Below, piece by piece: positions 47,431 through 51,019 of a stretch of DNA of 64,000 nt. The DNA is taken from the IMG/VR virus record IMGVR_UViG_3300043419_002586; one strand, written 5' to 3'. Origin of the DNA: a virus. The position numbers were made by a program, and so were the translations under genes. How positions within the stretch are numbered: the stretch's first letter is position 1; each line of letters opens with the position of its first letter. The notes beneath the pieces were generated by a model. That model made no database searches and was not told the DNA's origin. It worked only from the letters and a program-made list of their open reading frames with translations.

Positions 47431-47466
47431 AAAATAATAGGAGGAGAATAAATCTCCCCCTACTAT
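47431..47466 (-). terminator. Terminator of the capsid operon, downstream of exon 2
   Basis: ATAGTAGGGGGAGA-TTTAT-TCTCCTCCTATTAT-TTT. Confidence 0.7.
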
Positions 47467-47485: not shown

Positions 47486-47525
47486 TCAACTCACGGAAAT
47501 GCGACTGACAGCGTAATCGTTGATG
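47486..47525 (-). CDS. Exon 2 of the major capsid protein gene ((CT)C ATC AAC GAT TAC GCT GTC AGT CGC ATT TCC GTG AGT TGA = L-INDYAVSRISVS*)
   Basis: Follows the omega-G at 47526; joining to 47814 restores the frame and gives a 284-aa MCP; 9 of 12 residues match the intron-borne C-terminus. Confidence 0.9.
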
Positions 47526-47813
47526 CTCCTGTTCGGTTTAGGCTCTTTATCCTAAACTTACCTCCTCATTTCTAAGGAGTGTCGGACTATATCTTCATCT
47601 ACTAGAGATGCTTCGCACTCTTGGAAATTTCATCCGTTCTGGATTACTTTTTCTAGTCTCTGAACCTTCTAAATATTCCTATTTAGCTTGGTTGCTGATT
47701 GCCATATCTTTCGACTTAGGTTTCCAGCAATTCACGAAGTTTGTTCTATAATGTCGCCATTATAGAGCCCCCATTAATTAATACTGATTCTACTTACAGC
47801 GTAATCTTGGATA
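47526..47813 (-). ncRNA. Group I self-splicing intron (subgroup IA-like, 288 nt, no endonuclease ORF) in the MCP gene
   Basis: P GAAUUGCUGGAAA (47733-47721), Q AAUCAGCAAC (47700-47691), R UUCAGAGACUAG (47664-47653), S AAGAUAUAGUCC (47595-47584); P2, P3 CUUCG/CGAAG, P4, P6a, P7 GACUA/UAGUC, P8 and P9 all pair, with GNRA loops; IGS UUAAUGGGGGC pairs with GCCCU| (U.G) and with exon-2 CAUCAA; terminal G. Confidence 0.95.
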
Positions 47814-48628
47814 AGGGCGAATCCGAGCTCTTCATAAACAACCCAGCCTAATCTCAATCTCTTTGGATCGTCAGCTGGAAGAACTGTGATGTCTTGGCGA
47901 ACTGGCATTGCACCAACAAATTGGGCAGGTGCGAGAACGTAAACACTGTTCTTAGGAACCATTGTGGAAACGTGGATGTCTGCGGAATAAATATGTCCGT
48001 AGAGACCAGTCATAAGAATATCTCTTTGAGTTGCCTCATCGAAGAATTCCTTACCCCAGTTTCTGATATCCTTGTAGCGTTGTGGGTGAAGAACAACCTT
48101 AGCACCGATCAACTCGTGCTCTTCAATGAGGGTCAACGCAAGGTTGACGTTCTCTGGTTGGAGAGTACCGGAAACGGAAATTGCTTGGTCAGTTGGAACG
48201 CCAGCGTTGATAACCTTGAAGACTTCGGTATCTTCTTGTCTTTGGAGGGAGTCCTTAGCACGAACTTGAGCTCTATCGACAATGTAGAATCTTCTTTGGC
48301 GAATTTCGTTCAAGCGGATTTGTGGGTGTGCAGCTAATTCAACTGTAGGAACGAGAAGCTCTTCAGCCTCAACTTCTGCAGTAGGAACAGCACCACGCTT
48401 AGGAATGACGTATGACTTGACAGCAACGTCTCTCTCGTAGCGAGCAAGAGCGCCTTGTGGGAGCTCATCAACCATCAAAAGCTTTCGACCGATGGCTTGG
48501 TACATGAGGGAGGTCTTGATTGGCTCAACCATTGCTTGTGCAAGAGCTGTGCGTCCCTCTGGAGTCTCGAGAGCCATTGCAATAATGGATTCTCTTTGCT
48601 CATTTGTGTTTCTCTTAATCATTGACAT
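47774..48628 (-). CDS. Major capsid protein, HK97 fold, encapsulin-sized (unspliced form; spliced form is join 48628..47814, 47525..47486)
   Basis: 284 aa; follows portal-protease-scaffold-decoration genes; AAGGAG SD; GC3-rich highly expressed codon usage; GRKLLMVDELPQG, VVLHPQRYKDIR, GLYGHIYSADIHVS, GWVVYEELGF. Confidence 0.85.
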   Translation of the reverse strand: MSMIKRNTNEQRESIIAMALETPEGRTALAQAMVEPIKTSLMYQAIGRKLLMVDELPQGALARYERDVAVKSYVIPKRGAVPTAEVEAEELLVPTVELAAHPQIRLNEIRQRRFYIVDRAQVRAKDSLQRQEDTEVFKVINAGVPTDQAISVSGTLQPENVNLALTLIEEHELIGAKVVLHPQRYKDIRNWGKEFFDEATQRDILMTGLYGHIYSADIHVSTMVPKNSVYVLAPAQFVGAMPVRQDITVLPADDPKRLRLGWVVYEELGFALIQDYAVSRISIN

Positions 48629-48661: not shown

Positions 48662-49315
48662 TTAGACGCCACTAAGTTGGGTGAAGTAAAGAAGGCCAGC
48701 TGCAGAGTCATAAGAATCAACTCTACCAACGATAACGCCGTCTGTTCCAACAGTGCCTAACTTGACAAGCTTACCAGCATTTGCAACACCAGCTGCAACG
48801 GTAAGAAGATCACCTACAGCAGGTGTCCAGCCAGCAGCAACACCATCAGTGGTGATGTTTGTGGATGCAACTGATGCAAATCTGTCGGTAATAAATTGTG
48901 CGCCTGGGGTATTGAAAACGCCAACACCTCTTCTTGGACCTTCGTATCCTGAAGAACCAGCAGTTGGGTTTGTAACACCATTGACGTTCTCAGCCAAGAA
49001 GTCGCCAATAGCTCTCTTTGAAACAACATAAAAACCGTTGTTGTTTGCTTGAAGAACACCAGAAGCGTCGGTGTATGAAGATCCAACTGGATCAGCAAGA
49101 ATCATAGTGTTGCCGGTTCTAGCTGTATCATCAGCTGAGAAGCCAACAAACTTACCTAATTGTTGTTGAAGTGTTGTAAAACCAGTTGCTGATCTGTATG
49201 CAGCAGCTACAGTTCCGTCAGATTGAAGGAAAAGAGCATCACCTGCAAGCCATGAGCCAGAAGCAGCTGTGTTGTAGTTTGCAACTACGAGTGTGTTTAA
49301 TGCACGAATAGCCAT
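48662..49315 (-). CDS. Putative capsid decoration/cement protein
   Basis: 217 aa, Gly/Ala/Thr-rich beta protein immediately upstream of MCP, AGGAG SD, MCP-like codon bias. Confidence 0.6.
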   Translation of the reverse strand: MAIRALNTLVVANYNTAASGSWLAGDALFLQSDGTVAAAYRSATGFTTLQQQLGKFVGFSADDTARTGNTMILADPVGSSYTDASGVLQANNNGFYVVSKRAIGDFLAENVNGVTNPTAGSSGYEGPRRGVGVFNTPGAQFITDRFASVASTNITTDGVAAGWTPAVGDLLTVAAGVANAGKLVKLGTVGTDGVIVGRVDSYDSAAGLLYFTQLSGV

Positions 49316-49348: not shown

Positions 49349-51019
49349 TTAGTCCTCGATTTTTGGCATTGTCCAAGTACCCTTGAGAGCGCCTTGGATG
49401 TCAAGAGCTGCACTATTGTTGGATAAACCACCACTTAATGCAGGAGATGTAGATACGCCTAATGTTGAAGCGGTTCTAGTACTCATTCTTTCAGCTGCAG
49501 CAGCTGCAACTCTTTCGGTTGAAGACTGTGCGGACTTAAGTAAGAGTTTGGTTTGTCTGATCATAGAATCAGACTTAAGACCATCGTTGATCATTTGTTC
49601 TGCATATGAATCAACTTCTTCGGAAGTAATAATTCCAGCTAAAGCTAACTTTGTAGCACAGCTATAAGAAGTTTTGACTCTTGCAAGATCAACTGCAGAT
49701 GACTTGAGTTGATTTACAGTGTTGTATGCATCATTCAACTCAACTTGAGTGTCATTGATTTTCTTTTGTGTATTAACATGTTGTCTTGTGTCAACATTTT
49801 GTGCTTCAACTTCCTTGTCTTTAGACTCAGCATTTGTTGGGCAATCCTTGTTTGCACACTTGGTGTTTGGATCTTCCATAGCTGCTTCTGACAATCTCAT
49901 AGAAGCGCCACAAGTTGTACACTCTACATCATGCTCATCTTTTGAAGCACCAACTGTTCTGGTGGTCTTATGTGGCATTGAAGGCATTTGAGTTGGAATT
50001 TCTGGTTGATCAGCATCTTCAAGTCCTTCGGAAGGATTCTCTAGCTTGTTCCAATCAACTGTATACTCTAATGAGCCATCTCCAGAACCTTCAAACTTAC
50101 TAGGCTTTGTGACTGAAGGGAATTCTAATGAATCTGGATTCATTGTAGGAACTCTTTGTTCAGCCCAAGTTGGATTTTGTTCCTTGAGTGAGTTACCCTC
50201 ACTGTTTTCCATTGTCATGCTTGGGTAATCAACTTCACCCATCATGTCAACCAAATCTTCGTTATACTTAAATGAGGCTGACGCTGGATAAGTTTCTTCT
50301 TCTGAAGCAATCTTCTTGAGAATTTCTTCTCTTTCAGCTCTTCTTAAGAGAGCTTCTCTCTGTGCCTTGCGCTCAGCCAATGCTTGTTTAGTCATTGATC
50401 TAACCTCGTTGCTTTTTTTCATAAATTGTGTTTCATTGTCTTCGTCATCATCTGACTCATCTTCTGAATCCATATCATCTTCGTCATCGTTAAAATGGGT
50501 GATATCTTCATCATCATCTTCGTCAGAATCATCATCTCCGCCAAGAAGATTATCTAGCGCCTCTTGCACAGCTTTTTGTGCTTGGTCTACCATATCAGCG
50601 GGAACTTCAATCTCAAAAGTGGCGACATCATCACTATCTTCTACTTCGTCTTCGTCTTCCATATCTTTATCAGACATGTCATCGTCATCTACATCTTCTG
50701 AATCTTCATCACTCTCAAAGTGATGAAATTCCATATCATCGTCATCATCATCAGAATTATCGTTTGCGAAGTCAACAGTCTCTTTACCATGATCAAGGTT
50801 CAAGTTAGAAACATCAAGACCAGCTTCTCTTGCAATGTTTGGAAGATACTTTGCTCTAATTGCTTTTGCGACAACAACAGCTTCATTTGTTTCCAAAGAT
50901 GCTGTCTTTTCCATGTCGGAAACGCAGTTCATAAGATCTTCCTTATCAGTTGCATTAATTTCAGCTAATCTCATTGCTGCATATCTTTCTTGATTGGCTT
51001 TATTCGAATTTTTATTCAT
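49349..51019 (-). CDS. Putative scaffolding/prohead core protein, highly acidic
   Basis: 556 aa with D/E tracts, coiled coils, CTTC...CANKDC motif; lies between the protease and capsid genes. Confidence 0.55.
   Translation of the reverse strand: MNKNSNKANQERYAAMRLAEINATDKEDLMNCVSDMEKTASLETNEAVVVAKAIRAKYLPNIAREAGLDVSNLNLDHGKETVDFANDNSDDDDDDMEFHHFESDEDSEDVDDDDMSDKDMEDEDEVEDSDDVATFEIEVPADMVDQAQKAVQEALDNLLGGDDDSDEDDDEDITHFNDDEDDMDSEDESDDDEDNETQFMKKSNEVRSMTKQALAERKAQREALLRRAEREEILKKIASEEETYPASASFKYNEDLVDMMGEVDYPSMTMENSEGNSLKEQNPTWAEQRVPTMNPDSLEFPSVTKPSKFEGSGDGSLEYTVDWNKLENPSEGLEDADQPEIPTQMPSMPHKTTRTVGASKDEHDVECTTCGASMRLSEAAMEDPNTKCANKDCPTNAESKDKEVEAQNVDTRQHVNTQKKINDTQVELNDAYNTVNQLKSSAVDLARVKTSYSCATKLALAGIITSEEVDSYAEQMINDGLKSDSMIRQTKLLLKSAQSSTERVAAAAAERMSTRTASTLGVSTSPALSGGLSNNSAALDIQGALKGTWTMPKIED

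Follow-up and report, generated by a model that had tools for sequence, protein, structure and literature searches.

A group I intron in a phage major capsid gene with an in-frame stand-in for the downstream exon in its P1 loop

The capsid gene, its intron and the two tails

The DNA analyzed here (the window) is a 64,000-nucleotide (nt) stretch of a 122-kb fragment from the IMG/VR virus record IMGVR_UViG_3300043419_002586. The record was judged to be about one third complete, and the virus is therefore a jumbo phage. Among named phage genomes we found no close DNA relative, and only the core of the intron described below matched other phage introns. The open reading frame (ORF) at positions 48628-47774 of the negative strand encodes, when read without splicing, a protein of 284 amino acids (aa). 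Its product matched the major head protein family PHROG 2522 (E value of 2.5e-67) and was recognized as an HK97-fold major capsid protein (MCP) by the NCBIfam model NF042927 (187 bits, with a cut-off of 80). The protein shares 48% identity with gp27 of Bacillus phage G, and the MCP profile matched the structure of phage G gp27 (PDB 6WKK) with an E value of 1e-115, the alignment to this chain of 280 residues reaching residue 279. An AF2 model of the MCP had a mean pLDDT of 66, which corresponds to moderate confidence overall, and predicted a terminal beta-strand at residues 278-283 with a pLDDT of approximately 90. If the model is correct, a subunit truncated at the splice site would be devoid of this strand.

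Two further genes lie on the 5′ side of the capsid gene. One encodes a protein of 556 aa in which Asp/Glu residues form long runs (49349-51019, negative strand) and the other a 217-aa protein (48662-49315, negative strand). Neither matched a Pfam or PHROG family; judged by position, they are possibly a scaffold and either a decoration protein or a second head protein. The features of the capsid locus itself are listed in Table 1.

Table 1. Features at the 3′ end of the capsid gene, with positions in the window
Feature	Position	Strand	Remarks
Exon 1, major capsid gene	47814..48628	-	815 nt; the splice-site U is the last base
Group I intron	47526..47813	-	288 nt; no ORF within it; ends with the terminal (omega) G
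Spare tail	47774..47812	-	12 in-frame codons and TAA, 39 nt, in the expanded P1 loop
Internal guide sequence	47767..47777	-	P1 half 47771-47767; P10 half 47777-47772, overlapping the TAA
Exon 2	47486..47525	-	Last base of a Leu codon, 12 codons and TGA
Terminator hairpin and T-run	47432..47461	-	3′ of exon 2
Free-standing LAGLIDADG homing endonuclease gene, 381 aa	46243..47388	-	Directly downstream, after exon 2 and the terminator

The intron is inserted 12 codons and one base upstream of the MCP stop codon. It matched the Rfam group I intron model RF00028 over the full length of the model (1-253; window positions 47790-47562, negative strand) with a score of 93.7 bits (gathering score of 50, E value of 8e-23). 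The first-pass annotation, made from the letters of the sequence alone, had described a complete group I core with its omega G at 47526, and both the full-length match and the G at this position bear out that description; the coordinates and pairings that it gave likewise proved right throughout. No further group I intron was found in the 122-kb virus record.

Exon 1 ends with GCCCU at position 47814 and exon 2 starts at position 47525. The GGGGC of the internal guide sequence pairs with the GCCCU of exon 1 to form P1, which places a U.G pair at the 5′ splice site, and positions 47777-47772 pair with five of the first six nucleotides of exon 2 to form P10 (four to six of six in the relatives). 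It had been proposed that the guide sequence fixes both splice sites, and comparison with intronless MCP alleles supported this proposal: joining the exons at the predicted sites exactly restored the frame and sequence of these alleles. All close intronless relatives end in ...A-L-I-N-D-Y-A-V-S-R-I-T-V-S, which runs uninterrupted across the predicted junction. The 3′ flank of three intronless loci (L003, L018, and L024) is, moreover, collinear with exon 2 and the terminator of the window. Because intronless relatives match exon 2 together with the terminator, exon 2 represents the ancestral end of the gene and the copy borne by the intron is the newcomer. We also considered placing the 5′ splice site one base further on, behind the second U, and rejected this; exon 2 would then be shifted into another frame, whereas the site used here yields the sequence of the intronless alleles.

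The capsid frame does not end at the 5′ splice site but continues into the intron for the 12 codons that we refer to as the spare tail, a stand-in for exon 2. The joined exons comprise 855 nt and would encode 284 aa, the same length as the unspliced product, in agreement with the earlier claim of two equally long proteins. The spare tail and exon 2 agree at 26 of 40 nucleotides and at 9 of 12 amino acids, a resemblance that is not a matter of chance, which leaves 3 of the 12 tail residues different. The silent-codon differences between the tails that had been pointed out before were confirmed from the sequence; silent-site divergence between the two tails of one genome is strong (pS of 0.4-0.9 for spare tail versus exon 2 across the genomes compared). 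Only the 248-nt ribozyme core separates the two copies, and the stop codon of the spare tail (TAA, 47776-47774) falls inside the guide segment, as previously noted for the window.

In an unrelated phage contig, a capsid gene of the HK97 type also contains a member of this intron family (L087, 5320-5577, positive strand; Rfam score of 87.7 bits). This intron carries an immediate in-frame TAA and has a P1 loop of only approximately 13 nt; its splice site and guide sequence are about 13 nt apart, versus 41 nt in the window. Measured against this related intron, the P1 loop of the window appears to be enlarged by about 30 nt.

Occurrence in relatives and the neighboring endonuclease genes

A scan of IMG/VR yielded 80 loci with related capsid genes at no more than 99% protein identity. 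All of these loci are intronless and none has a double tail, and a search of IMG/VR with exact intron patterns returned no matches. The same layout was, nevertheless, present in six other metagenome contigs originating from different samples (L081-L085 and L090). Two of them were reached through proteins with deviant tails: protein P0002 led to L081, which has the same intron and the same double tail, and protein P0053 led to L090, where a much diverged copy of the intron occupies the same site. A metagenome scan yielded the remaining contigs, L082-L085, with an open 12-codon spare tail in each. Since the scan pattern began after the stop codon, it did not select for an intact tail. The double tail is visible in L081, L082, L083, and L085, exon 2 being intact in each of them, while the L084 and L090 contigs end before exon 2 and therefore display the spare tail only. 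The sample is small and comprises six distinct spare tails, with L081/L082 and L083/L084 being close kin. An assembly artifact was rejected as the source of the duplication, given that the ribozyme lies between the copies in each of seven independent contigs.

In all seven contigs the spare tail consists of 12 codons followed by a stop, and this holds for both intron lineages, between which core identity is only 69%. Insertions and deletions in the loop occur exclusively after the stop codon (1 additional nt in L085 and approximately 17-21 nt in L090), and none falls within the 12 codons. The six other spare tails are free of indels, and exon 2 is intact wherever the contig reaches it. The stop codon of L090 is located 21 nt upstream of the guide sequence. 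Overlap between stop and guide thus does not determine the length of the tail, and the notion that the stop has to lie in the guide sequence could not be upheld.

The ribozyme itself was recognizable in both lineages, with RF00028 scores of 88.0 bits in L081 and 58.6 bits in L090, where the end of the contig truncates the match. All 8 pairs of the P1 stem are invariant in five sequences, and three double-sided, compensatory pair changes were observed among five close intron sequences. In L090, P2, P5, and P6 are wholly re-paired and the core is identical to that of the window at 123 of 177 positions (69%). The exon end and the guide sequence have both changed in this contig, and the pairing between them is retained (GCUGU with GCAGU). 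Such compensatory changes show that the predicted ribozyme is maintained. In the comparison of the five intron-bearing loci, the ribozyme core (93-98% identity) is much better conserved than either tail (58-98%) or the last 300 nt of exon 1 (86-98%), and a 36-nt core of the terminator is identical in all five.

The capsid gene of one further relative carries a different, unrelated insert of approximately 265 nt, one codon upstream of the site used in the window (L091, 2370-2640, positive strand). There, the frame continues through 16 unrelated codons to a stop, and the canonical tail lies behind the insert. Exon 1 ends with U and the insert with G, and an HNH-like gene lies downstream; the insert had no Rfam group I match even at an E value of ≤1. 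As this insert has no stand-in, a spare tail is not an automatic consequence of insertion at this place.

The ORF that follows exon 2 and the terminator in the window was assigned to the LAGLIDADG endonucleases by two Pfam families (PF14528, 35.5 bits with a cut-off of 22.5; PF00961, 27.5 bits with a cut-off of 23.1) and by PHROG 4645. Among the relatives, the gap between the MCP and methyltransferase genes is a hot spot for several LAGLIDADG lineages that are 29-63% identical to the enzyme of the window; such genes are found in the window and in L001, L003, L024, L026-L037, L083, and L085. Intron and endonuclease gene occur together in the window, L081 (where only the start of the gene is covered), L083, and L085. 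The endonuclease gene is present without the intron in L024, L003, L001, and others, and L082 has the intron and only a 25-residue remnant of the endonuclease. A strict linkage between the two was not found. Exon 1 of the window is 96% identical to that of the intronless loci L002 and L010 and 95.5% to that of L005, but only 86% identical to that of the intron-bearing L081, and its identity to the intronless group falls over the last ~100 nt. This pattern is as would be expected if the intron had arrived with its flanks by recombination. Homing endonuclease genes are known to cluster at capsid and other essential genes, where they mark recombination boundaries (PMC10448857), and the MCP locus fits this picture.

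Diversity is raised at the 3′ end of the intronless MCP genes, too. Nucleotide diversity in their last 11 codons is 0.23, versus approximately 0.10 in the rest of the gene, and the C-terminal peptide is conserved despite this doubled diversity (window positions 47486-47520, negative strand, and the same codons in L001-L046). The MCP tails of genomes with a downstream endonuclease gene are distinctly recoded.

Evolution of the two tails

We compared the tails of the five complete examples. The ratio of pN to pS amounted to 0.24 in the spare tail, as against 0.19 in exon 2. The variable sites were distributed over the first, second, and third codon positions as 5/2/10 in the spare tail and 4/2/11 in exon 2. 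The excess at third positions corresponds to binomial P values of 0.027 for the spare tail (10 of 17 sites) and 0.008 for exon 2. Pairwise comparisons of the spare tail of the window gave the same picture, as fewer amino acids were changed than random placement of the nucleotide changes would predict: 6 nt and 1 aa changes relative to L085 (P of 0.0008), 13 nt and 4 aa changes relative to L081 (P of 0.0008), and 17 nt and 5 aa changes relative to L090 (P of 0.0004). Collectively, these comparisons show a coding-like mode of change in both tails. The first-pass annotation had inferred protein-level selection on both copies from the silent differences within one genome; it is the comparison across genomes that supports coding-like evolution, whereas those silent differences do not show it by themselves. 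The coding-like pattern could, however, derive from recombination with the functional tails of other phages rather than from selection on the spare tail, the last 11 codons being a site of high diversity in intronless genes as well. We also asked about RNA structure as the cause of the conservation of the spare tail and rejected it. RNAalifold found no conserved consensus pairing within the spare tail, which is why structure does not explain the pattern, and the inner hairpin seen in the single-sequence fold is broken in relatives.

One residue sets the spare tails apart. The second residue of the tail is Asn in 155 of 158 cluster representatives of the capsid family and in all 155 that are intronless; the three representatives without Asn are the intron-bearing P0002 and P0053, and P0073, whose frame reads into another insert. 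In each of the six distinct spare tails this Asn is replaced by Gln, His, or Thr (Q, H, or T), while exon 2 retains it. The codons concerned (CAA, CAT, and ACA) all have a C in one of the first two positions. The constant absence of the invariant Asn from the spare tails had not been mentioned in the first-pass annotation. Because it never carries the Asn, the spare tail represents a separate lineage and not a recent copy of the working tail. Avoidance of the Asn codon or, alternatively, a relaxed position would account for this.

These observations bear on the possibility that the spare tail has no role at all and is a by-product of duplication, a scar of break repair or template switching in the course of homing that looks like coding sequence because it is young or has repeatedly been overwritten from real tails. 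Overwriting should sometimes have restored the Asn, yet none of the six spare tails has it, as opposed to every intronless tail. The exact length of the spare tail in two lineages whose cores differ by 31%, the confinement of indels to positions outside the 12 codons, and the silent-site divergence between spare tail and exon 2 of the same genome also argue against a scar. The account does agree with a locus at which recombination and homing are concentrated and endonuclease genes come and go, with the doubled diversity at the MCP 3′ end, and with an exon 1 that is closer to L002 and L010 than to L081 and loses this identity toward the intron. On balance, we regard it as rather unlikely.

The opposite relationship between the copies would hold if the spare tail were the working end of the gene, with the ribozyme and exon 2 as a displaced remnant that is spliced rarely or to no effect. 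Ribosomes do reach the spare tail first, gene callers give the spare-tail form as an intact 284-aa protein (P0002 and P0053), and alternative 3′ ends supplied by homing elements have a precedent in fungi (PMC4019555). A remnant, however, would hardly be expected to be intact in five of five complete examples, to have a pN/pS of 0.19, and to keep its Asn. It would likewise be needless to maintain the terminal G, P10, and the ribozyme, the latter with compensatory changes, if splicing were irrelevant. This explanation therefore appears unlikely to us.

The reason for the difference between the copies may also lie in the DNA. Avoidance of the Asn codon could possibly reflect the target of the neighboring endonuclease or recombination with exon 2; the copy would then be kept different so as not to rebuild the endonuclease target or to make the intron prone to deletion between direct repeats. 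A free-standing LAGLIDADG gene ~100 nt downstream, the C placed by every differing non-Asn codon in its first two positions, and the heavy recoding of tails in intronless genomes that have a LAGLIDADG gene, compared with those that do not, are in line with this idea. Still, it accounts for the difference from exon 2 and not for the existence of the copy or its frame, and intron and endonuclease gene are found apart (L082 on the one hand; L024, L003, and L001 on the other). Taken as the explanation of the spare tail, a role in the DNA is quite improbable; it is, at the same time, compatible with the fail-safe role proposed below and does not exclude it.

Possible role of the spare tail and comparison with known systems

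Group I introns are rare in the protein genes of bacteria and phages, and the standard explanation is that transcription and translation are coupled, with ribosomes arriving before the intron has folded. Bacterial ribosomes travel behind the polymerase and can run into an intron that has not yet folded; an early in-frame stop is usual in phage introns, and interference of ribosomes with folding is established (PMC3984707). Against this background, we propose that the spare tail acts as a fail-safe, in that ribosomes on unspliced RNA would still make a complete capsid subunit. Judged from the sequence comparisons described above, we regard this reading as the most likely one and assign it a probability of roughly 0.55.

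In the proposed mechanism, spliced RNA would give rise to the canonical tail. Unspliced RNA, read where translation closely follows transcription on the most heavily translated late gene, would yield a protein of equal length that has Gln, His, or Thr in place of the invariant Asn and altered last residues. Since read-through would produce a complete subunit, RNA that is unspliced or slowly spliced would presumably be neither wasted nor harmful. Selection may keep the stand-in because a subunit without the terminal beta-strand would be wasted or might poison assembly, and the stand-in could thereby make an intron tolerable at the MCP site. The element sits in a homing hot spot, with LAGLIDADG genes just downstream and a patchy distribution of the intron. 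Whereas the anatomy, the junction, the substitution pattern of both tails, and the upkeep of the ribozyme are shown by the sequences, we infer that splicing takes place in vivo, that the spare-tail form is translated and assembled, and for what selective reason it is kept. The spare-tail protein does not have the Asn found in all 155 intronless representatives and may therefore be less fit or non-functional.

The systematic difference at this Asn and the conservation of both tails could also be read as a sign of two functional isoforms, ribosome traffic over P1 and the guide setting the ratio of Asn to non-Asn subunits in a very large capsid. The overlap of stop and guide in the lineage of the window would suit such a device, but it is not conserved in L090. 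Most relatives build their capsids with a single tail, all 80 IMG/VR loci being intronless, and nothing indicates a separate role for the second form. We consider this reading very doubtful. It would be similarly bold, and we give it little credence, to regard introns with surrogate tails as a general adaptation for colonizing capsid genes of phages and giant viruses, in which loss of the Asn leads to a second class of subunits and to a switch of capsid composition that senses translation.

For the fail-safe reading, the most instructive comparison within phages is with the td, nrdB, and nrdD genes of phage T4, whose group I introns have an in-frame stop just inside the intron (PMC3984707). 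As in these genes, a self-splicing IA-type ribozyme would reside in a phage protein gene, the exon 1 frame extends briefly into the intron and stops before the catalytic core, and translation and folding would interact. In the T4 genes, however, read-through adds unrelated codons and results in a truncated product, whereas the element described here offers a look-alike of the exon that is exact in length and kept in relatives.

The first-pass annotation noted that phage group I introns usually sit in DNA-metabolism and similar genes. The capsid-gene site alone is not new, since group I introns are documented in the capsid genes of mycobacteriophage LittleE and lactococcal phage Tuc2009, and splicing of the LittleE intron was demonstrated by RT-PCR and N-terminal sequencing (PMC3706429). 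These introns share with the intron of the window a position in the most highly expressed virion gene. In contrast to it, the LittleE intron is located near the 5′ part of the gene, contains an endonuclease ORF, and must splice, and no surrogate exon has been reported for it.

The nearest analogue of the tail duplication itself is found in fungal mitochondria, where, as summarized in one report, homing endonuclease elements have given rise to alternative or duplicated C termini of atp6 in Allomyces, atp6 and cox2 in Phlebia, and rps3 in Ophiostoma (PMC4019555). In these genes, as in the window, a mobile insert near the 3′ end brings an in-frame replacement C terminus and the resident one is displaced downstream. 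The fungal inserts are endonuclease ORFs; use of the displaced copy is not required, and there is nothing that would join the old tail to the gene again. The insert in the window, by contrast, is a ribozyme that is predicted to be able to rejoin the resident tail, and both tails are intact; no endonuclease ORF lies between the copies, the gene following only after exon 2 and the terminator.

The gene arrangement further resembles collaborative homing, in which an ORF-less intron cooperates with a free-standing endonuclease gene, as in the DNA polymerase genes of T3/T7-like phages and psbA of cyanophage S-PM2 (PMC3984707, PMC10448857). Here, too, a conserved gene harbors an ORF-less intron close to its 3′ end and is immediately followed by an endonuclease gene. 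The likeness concerns the gene arrangement, and the linkage of intron and endonuclease is loose among the relatives. In the literature covered, which is incomplete, so that this is absence of evidence only, we found no description of a group I intron with a surrogate of its downstream exon encoded in the P1 loop.

If the fail-safe reading is correct, an intron that encodes a stand-in would remove the cost of ribosomes entering before folding and would account for the persistence of a ribozyme in a virus's most heavily translated gene. The number of such elements is probably underestimated, because the capsid gene looks intact to gene callers and the intron is thereby hidden. The 284-aa protein called at this locus, a point on which the earlier claim that gene callers see an intact MCP was accurate, is the spare-tail form, and C termini of capsid proteins in databases may accordingly be stand-ins rather than canonical tails. 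Introns sharing a 19-nt word of the core were also observed in other genes of two other viral contigs (L086, 3900-4300, positive strand; L088, negative strand).
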